A DNA stretch of 33,781 nt from a virus (lineage: Duplodnaviria; Heunggongvirae; Uroviricota; Caudoviricetes): the IMG/VR virus record IMGVR_UViG_640753025_000002; one strand, 5' to 3'. Below, in pieces: positions 3,928 to 18,183 of this stretch; within the stretch, counting starts at the first letter, position 1; each line of letters begins with the position of its first letter. Both the position numbers and the translations under genes were made by a program. The notes below the pieces were generated by a model. That model did not search any database, was not told where the DNA came from, and saw only the letters and a list, made by a program, of their open reading frames with translations.

Positions 3928-4781
3928 GCACCATCCTGAAATGGGCGGGAAATAAAACCGCCATTATGTCCGAACTGAAAAAACATCTTCCTGCTGGCCC
4001 GCGACTGGTTGAACCTTTCGCGGGGTCCTGTGCTGTGATGATGGAGACGGATTATCCCAGCTATCTGGTTGCGGATATTAATCCTGATTTAATCAACCTC
4101 TATAAAAAGGTTGCCGCTGATTGTGAATCGTTTATATCTCGCGCCAGAGTTTTATTTGAGATCGCAAACAGGGAGGTGGCTTATTACAACATAAGGCAGG
4201 AGTTTAATTACTCAACTGAAATTACTGATTTCATGAAAGCGGTATATTTCCTGTATCTCAATCGTCACGGTTACCGTGGTTTATGTCGCTATAACAAGAG
4301 CGGGCATTTCAACATTCCCTACGGTAATTATAAAAATCCGTATTTCCCTGAAAAAGAAATTCGCGCATTTGCAGAAAAGGCCCAGCGAGCAACGTTTATC
4401 TGCGCCAGCTTTGATGAAACGCTGGCGATGTTGAAGGCGGGAGATGTGGTGTATTGCGATCCGCCGTATGACGGTACGTTTTCCGGCTATCACACTGATG
4501 GTTTCACTGAAGATGACCAGTATCACCTGGCATCCGTTCTTGAACATCGGTCATCAGAAGGACATCCGGTCATTGTTTCTAACAGTGACACATCCCTGAT
4601 CCGTTCGCTGTATCGCAATTTTACTCACCACTATATCAAGGTAAAACGCAGCATCGGTGTGGCAGCTGGCGAGGGTAAATCAGCAACAGAAATCATTGCT
4701 GTTTCCGGGCCGCGCTGCTGGATGGGATTTGATTATTCGCGTGGCGTGGATAGTTCTGCCGTGTACGGAGTACGTGCATGA
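3924..4781 (+). CDS. dam: DNA adenine methyltransferase (Dam, N6-adenine GATC MTase family)
   Basis: Begins [11 protein letters not shown]; AdoMet motif FAGSCAV and catalytic DPPY motif (gatccgccgtat near 4447); GGAGG RBS before the ATG at 3924; the upstream extension to 3864 is rejected. Confidence 0.85.
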
Positions 4782-7192
4782 GTCATGCCGATATGAACAA
4801 CTGCTGCGGCTTTAACGAGGCTGCCGCAGCGTTCTCATGGAACAGCCCGAAAAAGGCCATTAACCCTTATCTGGACCCGGCGGAAGTTGCGCCGGTTTCT
4901 ACGCTTTCAAACCTGATCACTCTGTACGCTGCCGATAACGAGCAGGAACAGTTGCGCCGCGAGGCACTGAGTGATCAGGTCTGGGAGCGTTATTTCTTTA
5001 ATGAATCACGTGATCCTGTCCAGCGCGAAATGGAGCAGGATAAGCTCATTAGCCGGGCAAAGCTGGCGCATGAGCAGCAGCGTTTTAATTCAGACATGGT
5101 CATTCTGGCGGACGTCAACGCCCAGCCTTCCCATATCAGCAAGCCGCTGATGCAACGTATTGAATACTTCAGCAGCCTGGGCAGGCCAAAGGCTTATTCC
5201 CGCTATTTACGTGAGACGATTAAGCCATGTCTGGAACGACTGGAGCATGTACGCGACAGTCAGCTATCTGCATCTTTTCGCTTTATGGCAAGCCATGAAG
5301 GGCTGGACGGCCTGCTGATCCTGCCTGAAATGAGTCAGGATCAGGTGAAACGCCTGTCCACCTTGGTAGCTGCGCATATGAGTATGTGCCTTGATGCAGC
5401 TTGTGGTGATTTGTATGCCACCGATGACGTTAAGCCAGAAGAAATCCGCAAGACATGGGAAAAGGTGGCAGCGGAAACCCTGCGTCTGGATGTCATCCCG
5501 CCTGCGTTTGAGCAACTCCGTCGGAAAAGAAACCGCCGTAAACCCGTGCCCTATGAACTCATTCCGGGTTCGCTGGCGCGTATGCTGTGCGCCGACTGGT
5601 GGTATCGGAAATTGTGGAAGATGCGTTGCGAATGGCGGGAAGAGCAGTTGCGTGCTGTCTGCCTGGTCAGCAAAAAAGCATCTCCCTATGTCAGCTATGA
5701 AGCCGTGATGCATAAACGTGAGCAGCGCCGTAAGTCACTGGAGTTTTTCCGTTCTCATGAACTGGTGAACGAAGACGGAGACGCGCTGGATATGGAAGAT
5801 GTGGTAAACGCCAGCAGCAGCAACCCGGCGCATCGTCGCAATGAGATGATGGCCTGTGTTAAAGGTCTGGAGCTTATCGCGGAAATGCGCGGTGACTGCG
5901 CCGTTTTCTACACCATTACCTGTCCGTCACGTTTCCATTCCACGCTCAATAACGGCAGACCCAACCCGACATGGACAAATGCGACGGTAAGACAAAGCAG
6001 CGATTATCTGGTCGGTACGTTTGCTGCATTTCGTAAGGCGATGCACAAAGCCGGGTTGCGCTGGTATGGCGTGCGGGTGGCTGAGCCGCATCATGACGGC
6101 ACAGTTCACTGGCACCTGTTGTGTTTCATGCGCAAAAAAGACCGCCGCGCCATTACTGCATTGTTGCGTAAGTTTGCTATCCGTGAAGACCGTGAGGAGC
6201 TGGGCAATAACACGGGGCCGCGCTTTAAGTCTGAGCTGATTAACCCGCGAAAAGGAACGCCGACAAGCTACATCGCGAAATACATCAGTAAGAACATTGA
6301 TGGGCGTGGTCTGGCTGGCGAAATCAGCAAGGAAACGGGTAAATCCCTGCGTGATAACGCTGAATACGTTAATGCCTGGGCGTCTCTGCATCGTGTTCAG
6401 CAATTTCGCTTCTTTGGTATTCCGGGGCGTCAGGCGTACCGTGAATTGCGATTGCTGGCTGGTCAGGCGGCAAGGCAACAGGGTGACAAAAAAGCAGGTG
6501 CGCCGGTACTGGATAACCCGCGCCTTGATGCCATTCTGGCTGCTGCTGATGCTGGTTGTTTTGCCACCTACATTATGAAGCAGGGCGGCGTACTGGTTCC
6601 CCGCAAATATCACCTTATCAGAACAGCTTATGAAATTAACGAAGAGCCGACCGCCTATGGCGATCACGGTATTCGTATTTATGGCATCTGGTCACCCATT
6701 GCAGAGGGCAAGATTTGTACTCATGCAGTGAAGTGGAAAATGGTTCGTAAGGCCGTTGACGTTCAGGAGGCGGCAGCCGACCAGGGCGCTTGCGCCCCTT
6801 GGACTCGTGGCAATAACTGTCCCCTTGCTGAAAATTTGAACCAACAGGAGAAAGATAAATCAGCTGATGGGGACCCCAGAACGGACTTTACCCGCATGGA
6901 TGACAAGGAGTTGCACGATTACCTGCACAGTATGAACAAAAAGGAGCGCCGGGAACTGGCTGCAAGGTTACGTCTGGTGAAACCGAAACGGCGTAGAGAC
7001 TACAAACAGCGAATTACAGACCATCAACGACAGCAGCTCGTCTATGAACTGAAATCCAGAGGATTTGATGGCAGCGAGAAAGAGGTCGATTTACTCCTTC
7101 GCGGCGGCAGTATTCCGTCAGGAGCAGGCCTGCGTATCTTCTATCGGAACCAGCGTTTGCAGGAAGATGATAAGTGGCGGAACCTGTATTAA
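4778..7192 (+). CDS. A: Rolling-circle replication initiator/endonuclease (P2 gpA family)
   Basis: 804 aa; HUH-type motif [13 protein letters not shown] and the tyrosine pair [12 protein letters not shown] seen at the P2 A active site; start overlaps the dam stop (ATGA). Confidence 0.9.
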
Positions 7193-7287
7193 TTACGCTG
7201 GTTAACAATTCGTGCTCTTAATAATACCAGGCATATCAAGCTGATAAGCGTAAAAAAAACGTTTTACATCAGTAAGATTATTATATA

Positions 7288-7303
7288 CTGTAAATATAAA
7301 CAG
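7288..7303. promoter_or_regulatory. LexA operator (SOS box) CTGTAAATATAAACAG
   Basis: Exact CTGT-N8-ACAG with an AT-rich spacer, overlapping a TATACT -10-like hexamer, 44 bp upstream of the 62-aa ORF and DinI-like ORF; analogous to the LexA-controlled p95/tum promoter of phage 186. Confidence 0.7.
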
Positions 7304-7346
7304 TGGTTATACATACAGTATTTCTTGTGGTGTCATAGGAGGAAAG

Positions 7347-7535
7347 ATGCAGGACTATTTTTTGGAGTCTTTGAAGCTCCAGCGCATTGATTTTTTTCTT
7401 AAGCTTGTAGCGGCTAGTGAGTGTAGTGATGAAGAGAAGGGGCTGGCTCTGCAGTGGGTTTCTGAATTGACTGATGAACTCATGGCAAAAATCAGAAGCC
7501 ACGAATACAACCGCTCAATGGATGTCATCAGCTGA
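7347..7535 (+). CDS. Hypothetical protein (62 aa), first gene of the SOS-controlled module; possible antirepressor component
   Basis: AGGAGG RBS 4 nt upstream of the ATG; immediately downstream of the LexA box; acidic small protein. Confidence 0.45.
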   Translation: MQDYFLESLKLQRIDFFLKLVAASECSDEEKGLALQWVSELTDELMAKIRSHEYNRSMDVIS

Positions 7536-7545
7536 GGTGACTTTT

Positions 7546-7779
7546 ATGCGCATTGAAATAATGATCGATAAAGAGCAGAAGATTAGCCAGTCTACCCTGG
7601 ACGCCCTTGAATCCGAGCTTTACCGCAATCTGCGCCCCCTGTATCCCAAAACGGTAATCCGTATCCGTAAAGGTAGCTCTAACGGTGTGGAACTGACCGG
7701 ACTGCAACTGGACGAAGAAAGAAAACAAGTGATGAAAATTATGCAGAAGGTGTGGGAAGACGACAGCTGGCTGCATTGA
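7546..7779 (+). CDS. DinI-family protein (DNA-damage-inducible protein I homolog)
   Basis: 77 aa; begins MRIEI... and ends ...KIMQKVWEDDSWL, alignable by eye to E. coli DinI (MRIEV...ILQETWESADDWF); GAGGTGA RBS. Confidence 0.75.
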   Translation: MRIEIMIDKEQKISQSTLDALESELYRNLRPLYPKTVIRIRKGSSNGVELTGLQLDEERKQVMKIMQKVWEDDSWLH

Positions 7780-7834
7780 TTTTGTCAATAGACGCTTGTT
7801 TTTACTAATCAAAAAGGGTTACATATGAGTGAGA

Positions 7835-7867
7835 GGCGATGTCAATCGGATATCGCCTTGTTTTTTG
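7835..7867 (+). terminator. Putative rho-independent terminator after the SOS module
   Basis: Stem GGCGAT / ATCGCC with an 11-nt loop, followed by TTGTTTTTTG. Confidence 0.5.
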
Positions 7868-7892
7868 TCAAGAAAAGAATAATAGGCTAAAA

Positions 7893-8570
7893 ATGAAAAT
7901 TAATAATGTAGCGTTACCAATATCTCTTGCTGTAATCCTAACTGGTTGCGTGCCACATGCTTCTAACCGAAATATCACTGCTATTGAAGTGGTGAAGCCT
8001 GCTATTGGGCAAAGTGCTACCGCCTACATGGGCGATCCCATTATCACATCTGCTACTGGATTTAAAACGGACGTACTAGAACTTGGTGCGGCTAATGGTG
8101 CATTGTCTTCTATCGCTGCTGGTACATATTGCAGTGAGGGGAATGGAATTTACCGCAATTATCATAACCCTCAAGCTGTTGCGTTAAAAAATCTCTATGG
8201 GCAAATCGGTAACTATGTTGATTATGTTAGTTACGATGCTGCAAAAAATGAGATATCACCGCCAAATGGTACTTCTTATACTGCATCAGAAATTTCTATC
8301 AAACGTGTTCCTGATGGGCTGTGTCGAGTTAGTAACTCATTGGTTAAGACTATCGAATACAATGGAAATGCAGGCGGTGTAATGAAGTTCACCTATCGTG
8401 AATTTGCAAACGATATGGCTCGTGCAGCATTTACAACAGATTTTTCTGTAGATTCTAAGGGAAGTGACGTTATCGCTTACAAAGGTGCCAAGTTCAAAGT
8501 GAACAAGGCTGATAACTCGTCTATTTCTTATACAATTATTTCTGGCTTTGACAAGGCTGTCACGTTCTAG
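7893..8570 (+). CDS. Lipoprotein of unknown function (226 aa)
   Basis: Signal peptide with lipobox LTGC (MKINNVALPISLAVILTGC); AT-rich relative to phage core genes; lies in the variable region between A and cos. The ORF-track start at 7839 runs through the upstream terminator and is rejected. Confidence 0.6.
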   Translation: MKINNVALPISLAVILTGCVPHASNRNITAIEVVKPAIGQSATAYMGDPIITSATGFKTDVLELGAANGALSSIAAGTYCSEGNGIYRNYHNPQAVALKNLYGQIGNYVDYVSYDAAKNEISPPNGTSYTASEISIKRVPDGLCRVSNSLVKTIEYNGNAGGVMKFTYREFANDMARAAFTTDFSVDSKGSDVIAYKGAKFKVNKADNSSISYTIISGFDKAVTF

Positions 8571-8674
8571 TTTTCACGCTTACTGAGTATGTTACGATTT
8601 TGCACATTCTGCATAAGCGCGCATGTCTATGCTGCATGAGATCGCATGATCGTTTGAGGATCTTTTGTGTTAAG

Positions 8675-8699
8675 GCCCGCCAGTTCTGGCGGGCTTTTG
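8675..8699 (+). terminator. Rho-independent terminator downstream of the lipoprotein gene
   Basis: GCCCGCC-(AGTTCT)-GGCGGGC hairpin followed by TTTTG. Confidence 0.6.
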
Positions 8700-8743
8700 C
8701 GTAGATCATGCAGGTGCATGAAAACCACTACATAAAGCGGGCA

Positions 8744-8762
8744 GGCGTGGCGGGGATACGAG
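8744..8762. other. Probable cos cohesive-end site (GGCGTGGCGGGGATACGAG)
   Basis: Strong resemblance, from memory, to the 19-nt cohesive end of P2/186 (GGCGAGGCGGGGAAAGCAC-like); located in an intergenic region on the Q-proximal side of the genome as in P2. Confidence 0.45.
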
Positions 8763-8855
8763 CGCGCGCAATAAGTGTTTATACCAAAATATTGTCTTAT
8801 GATATCTTTATCGGATTACTCTGGAAGTTCTATAGCGTCATAAAGGATTTTTTTA

Positions 8856-10247
8856 ATGAACGAAAAACTAACTGAATTAAAAGAGAAACTAGATAATTTA
8901 CATACAACACTTAATGGTCTTGTATTCCCTGTGGAAGATTTTATAAACCTTGGGCCGTACACATTTCCTTTTTTACATAAAGATGATCTGATAGAACTAC
9001 CAAAAATGTTATCTGATAGAATTAATCAGATGCAGGAATTTGTACCATCTTCAGATGACATTGCAGTAATTGATGCGCTCATTTACACTCTGGATCATGC
9101 TCAGCAAAATATTAATCATATAAACAATGGTAACGCATCAGTTCAACAGACCGCTATACCATCTTATGTTATTTCAATGTTATATATCTCTCATAGGATT
9201 AATGACCTTTTTTCATTTGAGAGGCTGAAAGATAGAAATTTATTACCAAAGCAAATTTTACGCAGATTAGAATTATATAATTCAGGTATATCTGCAATTG
9301 CAGCTGAAACTGGTAATATAGAAGAGAAAATTAAAACTATAAATGAAGCATATGATGCAGCCGAGAATCTACCGACAACAGTAAAAATGCTTCGTGAAAC
9401 AAATGATGAAGTTAAAAATGTTTACAATAGCGCAGTTGAGCATTGCAGAAATATTAATGGCATGCTTAAAGAGACTGAAGAGAACTCCAAAATCGTAGAT
9501 GAGGCCAGACAAGAAATTTTGGCGCTGAAACAGAATGCAAGCAAGGATGCAAAAGATTATTTACAATCTCTCCGTGAAGAAGCTCAGGGTTATATTAATA
9601 AATGTGAAGAGGCATTTAGAACTACTACTTCAAAAGGTTTGGCTGGGGCATTTCAAGATAAAGCAGAAAAATTAAACCGGAGCATACGTTGGTGGGTATG
9701 TGGACTAATAGGTGCTTTGGTTGCAGGTGCTGCTGTTGGTTATACGCGTTTACATGCTCTCGAAGCATATCTGTCAAACCCTGACGCATCAGGTATAAAG
9801 TTAGCTATTCAACTTTTACTCTCCATTTTAAGTGTTGGAGCACCATTATGGTTTGCTTGGTTAGCAACGAAACAAATTGGTCAGCGATTCAGATTGGCAG
9901 AGGATTATGAATTCAAGGCCTCAGTATCCAAAGCTTATGAGGGATATAGAAGAGAAGCTGTCCAACTTGATAGCGACTTTACCCAAAGGTTATTTGGTAA
10001 TGCACTTACTCGACTGGAGGAGCCGCCATTAAGATTTGTTGAAGAAGCTACCCATTCATCGCCTATAATGGAAATGTTATCATCGGAAAATTTTAAGCAT
10101 TTCTTAGCTAATGGTGGCGATAAAATCGATTCAATTTTAGAAGGTGCAGGCCTTTCTAGAAAAGGTAAAGTCGAACAAACGCGCCATTTTAATAAGGATG
10201 TGATCCAGCCTGTAAATGAAACTTCAAACAAACCAGAAAATGATTAA
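8856..10247 (+). CDS. Membrane-associated protein of unknown function (463 aa): N-terminal coiled-coil-rich domain plus a two-helix transmembrane hairpin; candidate defence/abortive-infection effector
   Basis: Very AT-rich ORF with an AAGGA RBS; two hydrophobic helices (WWVCGLIGALVAGAAVGY and IKLAIQLLLSILSVGAPLWFAWLA) after about 265 aa of K/E/N-rich helical sequence; no NTPase or nuclease motif recognisable by eye; sits between cos and Q. Confidence 0.7.
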   Translation: MNEKLTELKEKLDNLHTTLNGLVFPVEDFINLGPYTFPFLHKDDLIELPKMLSDRINQMQEFVPSSDDIAVIDALIYTLDHAQQNINHINNGNASVQQTAIPSYVISMLYISHRINDLFSFERLKDRNLLPKQILRRLELYNSGISAIAAETGNIEEKIKTINEAYDAAENLPTTVKMLRETNDEVKNVYNSAVEHCRNINGMLKETEENSKIVDEARQEILALKQNASKDAKDYLQSLREEAQGYINKCEEAFRTTTSKGLAGAFQDKAEKLNRSIRWWVCGLIGALVAGAAVGYTRLHALEAYLSNPDASGIKLAIQLLLSILSVGAPLWFAWLATKQIGQRFRLAEDYEFKASVSKAYEGYRREAVQLDSDFTQRLFGNALTRLEEPPLRFVEEATHSSPIMEMLSSENFKHFLANGGDKIDSILEGAGLSRKGKVEQTRHFNKDVIQPVNETSNKPEND

Positions 10248-10272
10248 AAATAGGGGCGTTAGCCCCCTATTT
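10248..10272. terminator. Bidirectional rho-independent terminator between convergent genes
   Basis: AAAAATAGGGGC-(GTTA)-GCCCCCTATTT hairpin flanked by an A-run and a T-run, between the 463-aa gene (+) and Q (-). Confidence 0.5.
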
Positions 10273-10274
10273 CA

Positions 10275-11303
10275 TCAAAGCATATACTCATTAAAATTAA
10301 TTACATCATCATCTAACCAAGTGTTCAGTTCCAGTATTTTTTTTTGTAATACTGTTAACTCATTTCTAACAAATACTTTGCAGGCTTTCTCCACATCCCC
10401 AAATCCCCCAACATTATTAGGCATTATCCCCATCATTTGTGGCGGTACACGGTGCGCAGCCATCATGTCGTCGCGGCTGACATTTTTGATATTCAGAAAT
10501 TCATCCTTCGCCGCGACTTCTGACAACGGGATAATCTGAAGACCATCCTTTTTGCCGTTAGGTGAGTACATAAACAGGTTGCGGAAGTTGCCTGGACCTT
10601 TGGCGCTTTTCATTGCGTTGCGGAGGTTGTTCACATCCTCCTGGTTCTGCGCAGCATCGGTCATGTACATGATGAAGCCAGCATGACTGCCGTTAATGTA
10701 ATACTTTCGGCGGAACAGCGTGGCGGACTCGTTGAGCAGGGCTGACGGAATGGCAGAAAGATAACCGGGCAGGCCGTAGATCTCCTGGTTGATGTCCGGT
10801 TCCATCAGATGAAAGATGCTGCCTTTCGTGAACTGATATGGCTGCGTGGTCATACCGTATTGCACAAACCAGTAGGTATCCAGGTCTAACCCGCGTCGGG
10901 TATATTTTGCCAGGGCAGGTTCAAGGGCGATAACTTCACCGAAGCGGTTCGTGCGTTTCTCCAGGTAGGCGTTACCAAATACCAGATAGTCCTGCACAAA
11001 ACGCGAAAAAGCCTGCTGGCTGAGCAGCGGGTGAGGGATGTAGGTGCTGGTCAGAATGTTGCACTTTACTGCAATCGGGGAACTATGATGCACGGCAGCG
11101 CGGAAGGTGCGCGCCAGTCCGTCAAAGCTGACGGGCGGCTCATACCAGCGGTCCATCTGTACGCATTCCACATAATCCAGCAGTTCTCGGCGGTCCAGAA
11201 CAGGAACGGGATCGCCGAAGCTGAATGCTTCGGCTGTAGTTTGACTTTTAAGCTGGATCTGTTTCGTCGCCGCAGCGCGGTTCTTCTTACTCTTTCCCAT
11301 CAA
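10275..11303 (-). CDS. Q: Portal protein (P2 gpQ family)
   Basis: 342 aa (P2 Q is about 344 aa); position and orientation match P2 Q, with its start overlapping the end of P. Confidence 0.9.
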   Translation of the reverse strand: MMGKSKKNRAAATKQIQLKSQTTAEAFSFGDPVPVLDRRELLDYVECVQMDRWYEPPVSFDGLARTFRAAVHHSSPIAVKCNILTSTYIPHPLLSQQAFSRFVQDYLVFGNAYLEKRTNRFGEVIALEPALAKYTRRGLDLDTYWFVQYGMTTQPYQFTKGSIFHLMEPDINQEIYGLPGYLSAIPSALLNESATLFRRKYYINGSHAGFIMYMTDAAQNQEDVNNLRNAMKSAKGPGNFRNLFMYSPNGKKDGLQIIPLSEVAAKDEFLNIKNVSRDDMMAAHRVPPQMMGIMPNNVGGFGDVEKACKVFVRNELTVLQKKILELNTWLDDDVINFNEYML

Positions 11304-16537: not shown

Positions 16538-16753
16538 ATGACGCTTGAGCGAATCAGCGCCTTTATCACGTATTGCATCGCCGTCGTGCTGGCCTGGCTG
16601 GGCGATTTGTCCATCAAGGATGCCTCAACGCTGGGCGGCCTGATGATTGGTGTGCTGATGCTGGCTATCAACTGGTACTACAAACACAAAGCCTACCAGC
16701 TTCTGCGCGACGGGCAGATCTCGCGGGAGGACTATGAATCCATCAATCGTTAA
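16538..16753 (+). CDS. Holin, small two-TMD class (pinholin-like)
   Basis: 71 aa with two hydrophobic helices and a charged C-terminus; immediately upstream of an endolysin carrying an N-terminal signal-anchor-like segment. Confidence 0.6.
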   Translation: MTLERISAFITYCIAVVLAWLGDLSIKDASTLGGLMIGVLMLAINWYYKHKAYQLLRDGQISREDYESINR

Positions 16754-17246
16754 ACGCTGCCTTGTCGGGGCCGTGCTGGCTATTGCTGCCACGCTGCCGG
16801 GTTTTCAGCAGCTTCACACCTCCGTGGAGGGGCTGAAACTGATTGCCGATTACGAAGGTTGTCGTCTGCAGCCGTATCAGTGCAGCGCGGGTGTCTGGAC
16901 CGACGGCATTGGTAATACGTCAGGCGTCATTCCCGGCAAAACCATTACGGAGCGACAGGCAGCAGAAGGGCTGATCTCCAACGTGCTGCGTGTGGAGCGG
17001 GCGCTGGAAAGGTGTGTGAAGCAACAGCCGCCGCAGAAGGTGTATGACGCCGCGGTGTCGTTTGCCTTCAACGTGGGAACGGGCAATGCCTGCAGTTCCA
17101 CGCTGGTGAAATTACTCAATCAGCGGCGCTGGGCAGATGCGTGCCGACAGTTGCCGCGCTGGGTTTATGTGAAAGGTGTTTTTAATCAGGGGCTGGATAA
17201 CCGCCGTGCGCGGGAGATGGCCTGGTGTTTACAGGGAGCAAACTGA
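16734..17246 (+). CDS. Endolysin, lysozyme-like (GH24-type), probable SAR endolysin
   Basis: N-terminal weakly hydrophobic Gly/Ala-rich segment (CLVGAVLAIAATLPG) followed by a lysozyme-like catalytic region (EGLKLIADYEGCRLQPY...GVWTDGIGNT); GGGAGG RBS. Confidence 0.8.
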   Translation: MNPSIVKRCLVGAVLAIAATLPGFQQLHTSVEGLKLIADYEGCRLQPYQCSAGVWTDGIGNTSGVIPGKTITERQAAEGLISNVLRVERALERCVKQQPPQKVYDAAVSFAFNVGTGNACSSTLVKLLNQRRWADACRQLPRWVYVKGVFNQGLDNRRAREMAWCLQGAN

Positions 17247-17247
17247 A

Positions 17248-17625
17248 ATGAAAAAGAAATTAATCAGCGGACTGTTTCTGATGTTATGGATGGCGCTGTT
17301 AATCGCAGCAATGGTGTATCCGCAGGGGATTTTTCCGGTACTGGCAGCGTCCGGCGTTTGGGTAGCCTGTTTGCTGACATGGGCGGTAATTCCGGTAGCA
17401 CTGGCTGCGTTAATTAAGAATGGCCCGCTCTGGCAGGAGTTAAGGGCATCTTTGCTGAAGACAATTACCCGAAAAGAAAACGTATTTACCAGTTGGGTGA
17501 TGCGATTGCTGATTGTTGTAAGTCTCGCCTGGACGGGGTGGGCTATTACCCTGGTCTTTTATCTACTGACCGTTATTGCCTTCTGGATCACCCGTAATCA
17601 GATGGCGCAACAGGTAGCAGCATGA
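17248..17625 (+). CDS. Lysis-associated membrane protein (P2 LysA-like)
   Basis: 125-aa multi-TM protein between the endolysin and the spanin genes, the position of P2 lysA. Confidence 0.55.
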   Translation: MKKKLISGLFLMLWMALLIAAMVYPQGIFPVLAASGVWVACLLTWAVIPVALAALIKNGPLWQELRASLLKTITRKENVFTSWVMRLLIVVSLAWTGWAITLVFYLLTVIAFWITRNQMAQQVAA

Positions 17626-18050
17626 ACCGGTTGCTGCTGGTTGTGCTGGCGTTATTACTGGCGGCGCTGGGCTGGCAGACGTGGCGGCTGGCTGATGCCA
17701 GCCAGACCATCAGCACGCAGGCAGACGAGCTGCAGAGCAAAAGCCAGGCACTGGCAAAGAGCAACAGCCAGCTTATCAGCCTGTCCATTCTGACTGAAAC
17801 CAATAACCGGGAGCAGGCGCGGCTCTATGCCGAAGCAGAACAGACCAGCGCACAGCTGAGACAACGACAACGCCGGATCGAGGAACTGAAACGTGAGAAC
17901 GAGGATTTACGCCGCTGGGCTGATACTCCTTTGCCTGCTGACATTATCCGGCTGCGGGAACGTCCGGCACTCACCGGAGGTGCAGCTTACCGTCAGTGGT
18001 TGTCCGCGAGTGACGCCGTGTCGGCTGGAGCAGGCAGCACCGCGCACTAA
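17622..18050 (+). CDS. lysB: Inner-membrane spanin (Rz-like; P2 LysB family)
   Basis: N-terminal TM helix, then a coiled-coil periplasmic domain; 142 aa; contains the embedded o-spanin gene in another frame. Confidence 0.7.
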   Translation: MNRLLLVVLALLLAALGWQTWRLADASQTISTQADELQSKSQALAKSNSQLISLSILTETNNREQARLYAEAEQTSAQLRQRQRRIEELKRENEDLRRWADTPLPADIIRLRERPALTGGAAYRQWLSASDAVSAGAGSTAH

Positions 18051-18183
18051 CGGTGATCTGAATGCGTTGCTGGATGAAACGGAGGCCGCCTGGGCGGTCT
18101 GTGCAGACAAAGTGGACATGATTATTGCGTGTCAGGAGCGAAACAGTGAACAAACCACAGTCCCTGCGCCACGCCCTCAATAA
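17893..18183 (+). CDS. lysC: Outer-membrane lipoprotein spanin (Rz1-like; P2 LysC family), embedded in and extending beyond lysB
   Basis: GTG start; lipobox LTLSGC; Pro-rich; overlaps lysB in the +1 frame. Confidence 0.65.
   Translation: MRTRIYAAGLILLCLLTLSGCGNVRHSPEVQLTVSGCPRVTPCRLEQAAPRTNGDLNALLDETEAAWAVCADKVDMIIACQERNSEQTTVPAPRPQ

Follow-up and report, generated by a model that had tools for sequence, protein, structure and literature searches.

The window, by which we mean the whole 33,781-nucleotide stretch of DNA that was analysed, is a Fels-2-like prophage of the P2 family and is 100% identical to E. coli HS. It carries a lipoprotein gene between gpA (4778-7192) and the portal gene Q (10275-11303), with one further gene (8856-10247) separating it from the portal gene. 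The lipoprotein gene lies directly 3' of a module made up of a LexA box, orf62 and a DinI-like (TumB) gene (Table 1).

Table 1. Features at the lipoprotein locus, in window coordinates
Feature	Position	Strand	Basis or remarks
LexA box CTGTAAATATAAACAG	7288-7303	+	upstream of tum-type SOS operon
orf62, first gene of the SOS operon (STM2728 equivalent)	7347-7535	+	phrog_698, E 6e-38
DinI-like / TumB gene (STM2726.1/STM2727 equivalent)	7546-7779	+	Pfam DinI, E 1e-22
Lipoprotein cassette (indel unit: upstream hairpin, gene and 50 nt downstream)	7778-8620	+	comparison with CP61_Sichuan
Terminator-like hairpin (7833-7859) and T6 (7861-7866) between DinI-like and lipoprotein genes	7833-7866	+	terminator scan, folding
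Lipoprotein gene	7893-8570	+	225 aa; STM2726 / EcHS_A0921 / WP_000700647; phrog_1353
Signal peptide, residues 1-18, ending in lipobox L-T-G	7893-7946	+	G18 invariant, lipobox pattern present
Cys19 codon, predicted lipidated mature N-terminus (Val20 at +2)	7947-7949	+	C19 invariant in 22 homologues
Intrinsic-terminator-like hairpin and U-run, ending the transcription unit	8672-8698	+	folding; element of the tum/DinI backbone

The lipoprotein gene is a real gene under strong purifying selection

The open reading frame runs from an ATG at 7893 to a TAG at 8568-8570, and its 678 nt encode 225 residues plus a stop, not the 226 residues first reported. The Fels-2 record places the start at the in-frame position 7839, giving 243 residues. 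We rejected this longer form because the upstream start is not conserved: in the aligned locus L041 it begins a 15-codon upstream reading frame closed by a stop, as read off the alignment, and the PGAP annotation uses the 225-residue form. Comparison with a 93.8%-identical allele gave 35 synonymous and 7 non-synonymous differences (dN/dS ~0.05). The lipoprotein ORF is a real gene under strong purifying selection.

The gene is AT-rich, as originally predicted, with a GC content of 40.7% compared to 51.9% for the window. Its GC3 is 0.311, and the corresponding values for gpA are 0.528 (GC) and 0.565 (GC3). Judged against gpA, the base composition of the lipoprotein gene differs from that of its neighbours, as is typical of a moron.

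The protein is predicted to be an outer-membrane lipoprotein

The N-terminus of the protein reads MKINNVALPISLAVILTG followed by C19. Its layout, MK-INNVALPISLAVI-LTG-C19, shows the basic n-region, hydrophobic core and lipobox of bacterial lipoproteins. G18 and C19 were invariant across 22 homologues. Using a PROSITE-type pattern ([LVI][ASTVI][GAS]-C within about 15-35 residues), we observed a lipobox in 22/23 close, 113/142 representative and 100/113 distant family members. These data bear out the lipoprotein signal peptide and lipobox of the original prediction, which had also proposed a check of the residue after the lipobox cysteine. This +2 residue is Val20 here, and Asp was observed at +2 in none of 235 family members. 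Because the +2 residue is Val and not Asp, sorting to the outer membrane is predicted; by this rule the protein would be exported, handled by the Lol system and anchored in the outer membrane.

The mature domain had been described as rich in Gly, Ser, Asn and Tyr. These four residues do make up 32.4% of the mature chain, but the single commonest residue is Ala. An AF2 model (pLDDT 80) predicts that the 207-residue mature chain is all-beta, and it contains two cysteines, C80 and C144, that are invariant among the homologues.

The lipoprotein matched phrog_1353 over nearly its entire length (E 3e-105; residues 1-223 on profile positions 1-230 of 230), a PHROG that has no function label. A profile search returned 2,434 cluster representatives. 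The protein had been called an orphan; this full-length match and the thousands of clusters contradict that label, and the sequence comparisons indicate that it belongs to a large uncharacterised family. Neither the lipoprotein nor ten distant relatives had a match in Pfam, NCBIfam or PADLOC. For the lipoprotein itself, no PADLOC-DB 2.0 defence family and neither of the Pfam Bor and TraT families matched at E <= 1. Profiles of the family had no match among PDB sequences, and no PDB or fold match was found. Across the Pfam, PHROG, PADLOC, PDB and fold searches, nothing resembled Cor, Llp, Bor, TraT, Ltp, SieA or gp15 in sequence or fold. In the literature, WP_000700647, EcHS_A0921 and YP_001718750 were not mentioned in any paper found, STM2726 was named in one paper only, and papers on Acinetobacter phage Ab1656-2 and on prophage lipoproteins contained nothing functional.

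The gene is a self-contained cassette within an SOS operon

In E. coli CP61_Sichuan, 82 unrelated bases take the place of the 843-bp cassette, and the flanks (window 7601-7777 and 8621-9000) are 97-99% identical. The cassette is thus found in some P2-like prophages and missing from others that are otherwise collinear, which is a second hallmark of a moron. The lipoprotein gene is a discrete, self-contained 843-bp cargo cassette in the tum/DinI operon, 5' of the operon terminator.

The upstream hairpin (−16.5 kcal/mol, z = −2.9) is part of this cassette. Locus L039 keeps its stem through a compensatory C-G to T-A change, as read off the alignment. The hairpin ends 33 nt before the lipoprotein ATG, and a consensus promoter scan found no convincing sigma-70 promoter between the two; the sole sigma-70-like match (7865-7894) would place the transcription start within the ORF. 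The downstream hairpin (8672-8697; −21.8 kcal/mol, z = −4.3) is followed by UUUU, and the consensus terminator scan omits it because it has four U only. A relative without the lipoprotein gene keeps this hairpin, so it is part of the shared backbone, which does not support the claim that it is the gene's own terminator.

We assessed the LexA box and the two genes that precede the lipoprotein gene. The box is the sole CTGT-N8-ACAG match in the window, and since 46 of 100 shuffles contained at least one match, a single match is not unusual. It gains weight because it lies ahead of orf62 and the DinI-like gene and because the orthologous operon is induced by DNA damage. The product of orf62 is annotated as hypothetical in both Fels-2 and E. 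coli HS. The DinI-like protein shares 78% identity with PSP3 TumB and 41% with the C-terminal part of phage 186 Tum. The gene had been placed between the SOS module and cos. The first half of this placement holds, with the SOS module directly upstream; for the second half, the P2 cohesive-end sequence had no match in the window within 3 mismatches.

Published array data cover the Salmonella operon STM2726-2727-2728. All three genes were upregulated 2.6 to 14.8-fold 30 min after addition of the mutagen MX (p<0.05), and none of them was below background in the Fels-2 lysogen (PMC2225428). The Salmonella orthologue STM2726 therefore rises with both tum genes after DNA damage. The lipoprotein gene is transcriptionally tied to the SOS response and is not obviously constitutive, which counts against a role in superinfection exclusion.

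The gene is accessory in P2-like phages and constant in the Fels-2 lineage

The gpA-gpQ interval of the P2 family is a defined hotspot, and WP_000700647 is listed among its loci in Table S5A of the study that described it (PMC9122126). The sequence was absent from the searched part of Table S5B. By position, the lipoprotein gene is gpA-gpQ hotspot cargo. We observed it in 49 of 5,426 E. coli genomes, compared to 1,280 genomes matched by other parts of window 7200-10400, and most P2-like phages lack it. Together with its presence or absence between collinear prophages, this supports the accessory position that had been proposed.

The gene had also been assigned to a variable region. In ~50 Fels-2-like viral contigs, however, the order gpA-orf62-DinI-lipoprotein was fixed, and the lipoprotein was ~100% identical where gpA was 88-99% identical. 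The variable stretch begins beyond the lipoprotein gene and spans 0.4 to 3.6 kb. In this lineage the gene is a constant flank, and the cargo that is swapped lies downstream of its terminator.

The lipoprotein shows 99-100% identity among phages of Klebsiella, Salmonella and E. coli. Prophages of clinical Klebsiella pneumoniae ST11/ST258/ST512 commonly carry its gene, as do those of Salmonella Enteritidis and Typhimurium. A close-alignment scan of species-representative genomes found one locus, in Erwinia sp. S63, so the gene is rare in that set, which is not a census.

Distant relatives recur beside tape-measure genes and in islands

Distant relatives of the lipoprotein were found on 198 viral contigs. 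Among the 57 distant-relative loci with enough flank, 41 had an ORF of at least 800 aa within two genes downstream on the same strand, in siphovirus prophages. All seven of these ORFs that were tested were tape-measure proteins, with best matches in three PHROG families. The siphovirus relatives sit within the late tail operon and are likewise bracketed by terminator-like hairpins. The slot upstream of the tape-measure gene is the one occupied by the exclusion moron gene 15 of HK97 (PMC3594210). These sequence comparisons indicate that the family has been repeatedly inserted 5' of siphovirus tape-measure genes, and also into satellites and integrative islands.

In islands, the family neighbours include a putAbiC (AbiC-like) island, an OLD nuclease with nSTAND3, and reverse-transcriptase (RVT_1) and PRTase-CE genes that are retron-like in look. 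HicAB and Arc/Ant modules were also observed nearby. Further relatives occur in environmental Geobacter, Photobacterium and Pseudoalteromonas.

Lipoprotein and tape-measure divergence showed an overall rank correlation of 0.75, which reflects shared backbones. Lipoproteins 68-73% identical to each other adjoin unrelated tape-measure proteins, and we dropped tight co-adaptation of the lipoprotein with its own tape-measure protein for this reason. Because there is adjacency without co-evolution, the tape-measure slot may simply be permissive.

Discussion

Our data describe an optional cargo lipoprotein for which a phage-blocking role is plausible. Superinfection exclusion is our best guess from its context, a tentative one to which we give somewhat less than an even chance. 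The lipoprotein would act at the cell envelope to benefit the element that carries it, most likely as a superinfection-exclusion factor, and we prefer the version in which other phages are excluded over one in which the phage's own receptor is masked. The block would fall after adsorption, as the incoming tail tip and genome pass through the periplasm. Lysogens of P2-like phages would hold a little of the lipoprotein at all times, boosted when the SOS response is triggered and the prophage turns to lytic growth.

We favour exclusion because relatives repeatedly occupy the slot of the HK97 gene-15 moron by tape-measure genes and because they share islands with OLD, nSTAND3, AbiC-like and retron genes, although defence-gene neighbours are weak evidence for any one gene. 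Masking of the phage's own receptor carries less weight because phages with 100% identical lipoproteins share their tail fibre over the N-terminal 65% only, at 53% identity, and have unrelated receptor-binding ends. Besides the SOS coupling and the lack of a convincing sigma-70 promoter ahead of the ORF, other observations count against exclusion. The lipoprotein is conserved far beyond neighbouring essential genes, unlike the usual signature of an arms-race gene, and it has no similarity to known exclusion or defence proteins.

The evidence on cargo status, moron features and lipoprotein sequence also applies to a lysogenic-conversion factor, an envelope protein that would raise host fitness through, for example, serum or complement resistance, adhesion or tolerance of envelope stress, like lambda Bor or F-plasmid TraT. 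Its frequency in prophages of clinical Klebsiella pneumoniae and Salmonella is consistent with such a role, and the high conservation suits a host or environmental target better than a fast-evolving phage target. The lipoprotein has no Bor or TraT match in Pfam, however, and the repeated siting of the family by tape-measure, defence and toxin-antitoxin genes is better suited to phage-phage conflict. The family also spans very different habitats; the Geobacter, Photobacterium and Pseudoalteromonas relatives are at odds with a role confined to animal hosts, though not with one in general envelope fitness. We consider lysogenic conversion unlikely. A helper of the lytic phase, of the type of T5 Llp, would mask receptors or change the envelope so that progeny are spared from debris, vesicles and sister cells and the induced cell is barred to superinfection. 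SOS coupling also fits this role, given the LexA-controlled operon and the induction of the orthologue by DNA damage. The siphovirus relatives lie inside the late tail operon, so transcription during lytic growth is possible in both settings. Against this stand the identical lipoproteins that accompany unrelated receptor-binding fibre ends in hosts with different surfaces, the family members carried by islands and satellites that do not produce their own virions, and the terminator-like hairpins that would insulate the gene from the surrounding operon. We regard a lytic helper as distinctly improbable.

A structural or lysis component, such as an outer-membrane spanin or a tail-assembly factor, has the lowest probability of all, and we consider it very improbable. 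Outer-membrane spanins are lipoproteins, and many siphovirus relatives lie among tail genes by the tape-measure gene. Its export signal and lipobox are invariant, however, and no structural or lysis family in PHROG was matched. Most P2-like phages lack the gene and non-phage islands carry it, and in the P2-like phage it lies far from the tail and lysis genes. The window already contains a complete holin / endolysin / Rz / Rz1 cassette, with its Rz-like gene (17622-18050) and its Rz1-type lipoprotein gene (17893-18183) located elsewhere; we rejected a spanin or lysis role for the lipoprotein on the grounds of this cassette and the lack of a lysis-family match. The original prediction had seen nothing that points to a structural role in the virion, and the lack of virion or lysis homology in Pfam and PHROG agrees with this and effectively excludes those roles.

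Superinfection exclusion is our preferred reading. In its fullest form, the lipoprotein would be the founding member of a large, so far unrecognised family of outer-membrane lipoproteins, carried by phages, satellites and islands, that block the genome entry of rivals in the periplasm. The family would have a fold without a solved relative and would have been captured repeatedly into the tape-measure moron slot, and LexA wiring in P2-like phages would lift exclusion at lytic commitment. We consider it unlikely that all of these parts hold together.

If exclusion is the function, one easily cloned gene would define a new family of phage barriers at the envelope, and a very widespread one. Thousands of clusters in a family without a Pfam entry would gain a function, and the P2 family would gain an exclusion factor boosted by the SOS response. 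The identical protein in prophages of epidemic Klebsiella pneumoniae, Salmonella and E. coli bears on the host range of therapeutic phages and on prophage-shaped susceptibility. If exclusion fails, the gene remains a clean example of a conserved envelope moron.

Comparison with known systems

Within the P2 family, the closest setting is the gpA-gpQ defence hotspot of tin and old, which includes the lipoprotein gene in its interval. The lipoprotein differs in that it is not among the systems validated there (PMC9122126), has no PADLOC match and is constant in the Fels-2 lineage. As for phage 186 and PSP3 tum, the lipoprotein gene is the 3'-terminal gene of a tum operon that is LexA-controlled and of the 186 type. 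Lambda Bor and F-plasmid TraT are also outer-membrane lipoproteins on mobile elements. Both confer serum resistance, TraT also mediates surface exclusion, and TraT is similar in size at about 225 mature residues. They differ in their genomic settings and in the lack of a Pfam match at E <= 1.

T5 Llp and phi80/N15 Cor are phage lipoproteins encoded by accessory genes and located in the outer membrane, as is predicted for our lipoprotein. Llp is made in lytic growth, which resembles the SOS coupling described here. Llp and Cor are much smaller (about 60-80 residues) and inactivate the FhuA receptor. They show no homology to the lipoprotein in PHROG and Pfam scans, and they mask their own receptor, whereas the lipoprotein is identical across phages with unrelated tail-fibre tips. 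TP-J34 Ltp is a prophage lipoprotein that acts post-adsorption, where it binds the tape-measure protein of the incoming phage and so prevents DNA injection. An Ltp-like mode of action is attractive given the genomic association of our family with tape-measure genes. Ltp, however, is anchored in the cytoplasmic membrane of a Gram-positive host and has a helical repeat fold, whereas the lipoprotein is modelled as all-beta with no PDB match and shows no sign of co-evolution with the adjoining tape-measure protein.

HK97 gene 15 encodes a small inner-membrane protein of the YebO family that is not a lipoprotein and has no sequence relation to ours. It is a tail-operon moron with shown exclusion, whereas the lipoprotein gene here lies behind the tum/DinI operon and is an exclusion candidate. 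The two are alike as discrete add-ons of foreign composition, and both proteins are envelope-located (by prediction for the lipoprotein), small or medium in size, and have relatives outside prophages. Distant relatives of the lipoprotein also share the slot of gene 15, between the tail-chaperone genes and the tape-measure gene (PMC3594210).

Gene identity and family size

The window is a Fels-2-like, P2-family (Felsduovirus) prophage, and its region 7200-10400 was 100% identical to E. coli HS. The lipoprotein gene is EcHS_A0921 (RefSeq WP_000700647), and its Fels-2 orthologue, STM2726, was 99.1% identical. The encoded protein is 225 aa long; the 226 aa of the original prediction had included the stop codon. 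In the Fels-2 record, the gene begins at an ATG further upstream (7839), which makes the protein 243 aa long. This start was not conserved, as the extension ran into a stop in a 79%-identical lineage (alignment read by eye). The start at 7893 is used by PGAP and nearly all homologues. Compared with a 93.8%-identical E. coli allele, the gene carried 35 synonymous and 7 non-synonymous changes (dN/dS 0.05), and dN/dS was 0.04-0.19 in comparisons down to 55% protein identity. These substitution patterns show a real gene under strong constraint.

The protein had been called an orphan, which it is not: it matched phrog_1353 end to end (E 3e-105; PHROG function unknown) and that a close-family profile recovered 2,434 cluster representatives at E <= 1e-3, including 1,256 at E <= 1e-10. 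A second search, with distant members as queries, listed 1,359 proteins from gamma-proteobacterial, delta-proteobacterial and other sources, always annotated as "hypothetical" or "lipoprotein" and never with a Pfam domain. The family had zero matches in Pfam, NCBIfam, PADLOC and PDB sequences. Among deposited phages of Klebsiella and Salmonella, 28 carried an identical or near-identical copy, as did 49 of 5,426 complete E. coli genomes and 58 IMG/VR contigs. At least 1,000 contigs carried the exact sequence, which one source labels "Lipoprotein". In the protein collection, the protein (7893-8567) fell into a 90%-identity cluster whose representative, like many of its members, was a branched-chain amino-acid aminotransferase (308 aa). 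This mixture appears to be an artefact of clustering and may explain why the exact protein was missing from the first homologue search.

Features of the window discussed in the text
Feature	Position	Remarks
gpA	4778-7192	
LexA box	7288-7303	perfect, CTGTAAATATAAACAG; 5' of orf62
orf62	7347-7535	
DinI-like gene	7546-7779	
Upstream hairpin	7833-7859	DinI-lipoprotein gap; -16.5 kcal/mol, then T6
Lipoprotein gene	7893-8570	plus strand
Downstream hairpin	8672-8697	3' of lipoprotein gene; -21.8 kcal/mol, z = -4.3, then UUUU
463-aa ORF	8856-10247	plus strand
G+C-rich hairpin	10247-10273	GGGGCGTTAGCCCC
Portal gene Q	10275-11303	minus strand
Holin	16538-16753	
Endolysin	16734-17246	
LysA-like gene		in lysis cassette
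Rz-like gene	17622-18050	
Rz1-like lipoprotein	17893-18183	

Lipoprotein signal and predicted structure

The N-terminus of the protein is MKINNVALPISLAVILTG followed by C. G18 and C19, together with C80 and C144, were invariant in 22 homologues, and a PROSITE-style lipobox pattern was found in 22 of 23 close, 113 of 142 representative and 100 of 113 distant family members. By sequence, the protein is a lipoprotein, as first proposed. In Enterobacterales, the residue after the lipidated Cys determines Lol-dependent sorting to the outer membrane (the established +2 rule). Here this residue is Val, and it was never Asp in the family members scored for the lipobox, which predicts Lol-dependent anchoring in the outer membrane. 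The mature chain is rich in Gly, Ser, Asn and Tyr, as described originally (32.4% in total). An AlphaFold2 model from a 22-sequence alignment was all-beta (pLDDT 80.3, pTM 0.60), with residues 1-27 as a disordered tether. A conserved C-terminal domain of ~75 residues (IEYxG...YREF...AR.AF...YKGA...Y.V) also ends longer proteins (340-380 aa) whose signal peptides are of the ordinary type with no lipobox and whose N-terminal parts are unrelated, which makes this domain a portable module.

Cassette boundaries and expression

The DinI-like protein shared 78% identity with PSP3 TumB and 41% with the C-terminal part of phage 186 Tum. Together with the LexA box, this identifies the "SOS module" reported beside the gene as a 186-type tum operon. 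E. coli CP61_Sichuan has orf62, DinI and the 463-aa gene in common with the window but lacks the lipoprotein gene. There, 82 unrelated bases replace window 7778-8620, and homology returns before the downstream hairpin. The lipoprotein gene is therefore a discrete cargo cassette of 843 bp that includes the upstream hairpin. Because homology restarts before the downstream hairpin, this terminator belongs to the tum-operon backbone and is not the gene's own, as had been claimed.

In a diverged lineage, a compensatory change preserved the stem of the upstream hairpin (alignment read by eye). The in-frame ATG at 7839, preceded by GAGAGG, sits inside this terminator-like structure (7833-7866), which could work in termination, in attenuation or at the level of translation. 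The 79%-identical lineage differs in the region 5' of the gene and has a 15-codon upstream ORF there.

No convincing sigma-70 promoter was found between the upstream hairpin and the lipoprotein ATG; a single consensus match would start transcription within the ORF. In a microarray of Salmonella TA100 (Fels-2+) after 30 min with the mutagen MX, the operon STM2726-STM2727-STM2728 was listed, with all three genes significant, in the same direction and none below background; fold changes were 2.6 to 14.8, given as a range without per-gene assignment (PMC2225428). Judging by gene numbers, we read this as the only Fels-2 operon in the MX table (PMC2225428). The orthologue is thus induced by DNA damage, and its signal in a Fels-2 lysogen runs counter to one refuting condition of the original prediction, lack of transcription in lysogens. 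The simplest inference is read-through of the LexA-controlled transcript across a leaky hairpin.

Variation in the hotspot

Across ~50 Fels-2-like viral contigs, the order gpA-orf62-DinI-lipoprotein was constant, with identities of ~100% for the lipoprotein, 88-100% for gpA and 85-96% for the portal. The lipoprotein-to-portal distance varied between ~0.4 and 3.6 kb. Many E. coli genomes lost identity with the window near 8770. Placement in a "variable region" held in that the gene is accessory across all P2-like phages, but within its own lineage it forms a constant hotspot edge. Fast-swapping cargo starts past the lipoprotein terminator. A P2 hotspot study lists the protein as "hypothetical" in Table S5A, beside various other cargo, and neither singled it out nor assayed it (PMC9122126). 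The P2 cos sequence used as query had no match anywhere in the window within 3 mismatches.

The 463-aa gene fills the slot that really varies, bounded by the lipoprotein terminator and the portal gene, and is very AT-rich (36% GC). Its protein matched phrog_34659 (unknown function) and, weakly, coiled-coil families, with nothing convincing in PADLOC or Pfam; two hydrophobic segments were read by eye at ~residues 270-340. The gene was missing from all 58 related IMG/VR loci and from the ~50 contigs compared for order, and was complete in only 9 E. coli genomes; one 45%-identical match was in a Providencia phage. We rate it above the lipoprotein as a candidate for a swapped-in, single-gene effector of defence or abortive infection. 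Other E. coli carriers (NCTC11121, ESDR8) have different cargo 3' of the lipoprotein (e.g. 355-aa, STAS-like and 162-aa proteins), and IS1 copies have inserted in this slot. The G+C-rich hairpin filling the 27-nt gap between the convergent 463-aa and portal genes has T-runs on both strands and looks like a bidirectional terminator.

Relatives in other elements

Several unrelated phage lineages carry members of the family as cargo, and distant relatives are encoded on 198 viral contigs. Gene orders were toxin-antitoxin-like pair, lipoprotein, small ORF, tape-measure gene in Acinetobacter Vieuvirus phages; Arc, Arc, Ant, pRha, lipoprotein, Zn-ribbon, tape measure in a Klebsiella aerogenes siphovirus prophage; and tape measure, lipoprotein, HicB, HicA, Mnt/Arc, antirepressor in a Providencia prophage. 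In Moraxella Mcat28, the lipoprotein lies amid tail genes. Of 57 loci whose downstream flank reached 3.5 kb or more, 41 had, among the next two genes, a same-strand ORF of 800 aa or longer. All seven such ORFs tested were tape-measure proteins, with best matches spread over three PHROG families. At three tape-measure-adjacent loci, terminator-like hairpins flanked the lipoprotein gene on both sides. The lipoprotein is not tightly co-adapted to this neighbour: lipoproteins 68-73% identical adjoined unrelated tape-measure proteins, and 100%-identical ones adjoined tape-measure proteins at ~35%.

The lipoprotein gene adjoins Arc/Mnt-antirepressor (immI-like) modules in two siphovirus prophages and the Tum antirepressor operon in the P2-like phage; P22 sieA also adjoins mnt (PMC10883804). 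This recurrent pairing may be coincidence or shared regulation.

Outside phages, relatives lay at the edge of a 7.5-kb Klebsiella island that carries a serine recombinase and an AbiC-like gene, alongside an OLD-family nuclease and an nSTAND3 protein in a Pantoea island, in satellite-like elements with only an integrase and small terminase, in a Brenneria mobilisable element, on a Photobacterium chromosome, and in Geobacter beside an integrase, with retron-like genes for a reverse transcriptase and a PRTase ~4-5 kb away. The small elements that carry homologues of 54-57% identity encode a serine recombinase or an integrase along with defence-type proteins (AbiC-like, OLD nuclease, nSTAND3), and some have a small-terminase gene on its own. 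These elements look like Klebsiella and Pantoea phage satellites or defence islands. The family is therefore large, and temperate phages, satellites and islands have captured it repeatedly.

Possible functions

We infer that this apparently exported, lipobox-bearing and strongly constrained protein acts at the envelope to benefit the carrying element. Exclusion of other phages, as first proposed, is our best guess; we hold it only tentatively, mainly because the protein is highly conserved and resembles none of the known exclusion proteins. In Klebsiella phages whose lipoprotein was 100% identical, the tail fibre was shared over residues 1-378 only (53% identity), with unrelated distal ends, which argues against a simple mask of the carrier's own receptor. 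Given this independence of carrier receptor specificity and the analogy with the slot of HK97 gp15, we lean toward exclusion by a block that would act after adsorption, in periplasmic transit. In P2-like phages, the lipoprotein level would rise once SOS fires.

A host-fitness factor like Bor or TraT is less likely, and an Llp-like function in the lytic phase is unlikely. The original prediction saw no structural role, and we found no match to virion or lysis families in Pfam or PHROG. The window also has separate lysis genes, and a structural or lysis role is highly improbable. The rest of the probability falls to something else.

Comparison with known systems

Databases and a published hotspot table had already recorded the gene's product as a hypothetical protein. 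New here are the family size, the repeated tape-measure-proximal slot, the exact cassette boundaries and the tie to the LexA-controlled tum operon. The gene is a good, cheap candidate for experiment, though no surprise. HK97 gene 15, which was the first moron to be described and acts in superinfection exclusion, lies in a tape-measure-proximal slot (PMC3594210). The siphovirus relatives occupy the same slot, making gp15 a positional analogue of the family. Prophage morons for envelope lipoproteins are a well-known category (Cor, Llp, Bor, Ltp), and our gene is the same in kind. Homology tests of the protein against the Cor, Llp, Bor, Ltp and gp15 families all failed, so its family is a further, uncharacterised one among envelope-lipoprotein morons rather than a new kind of system.
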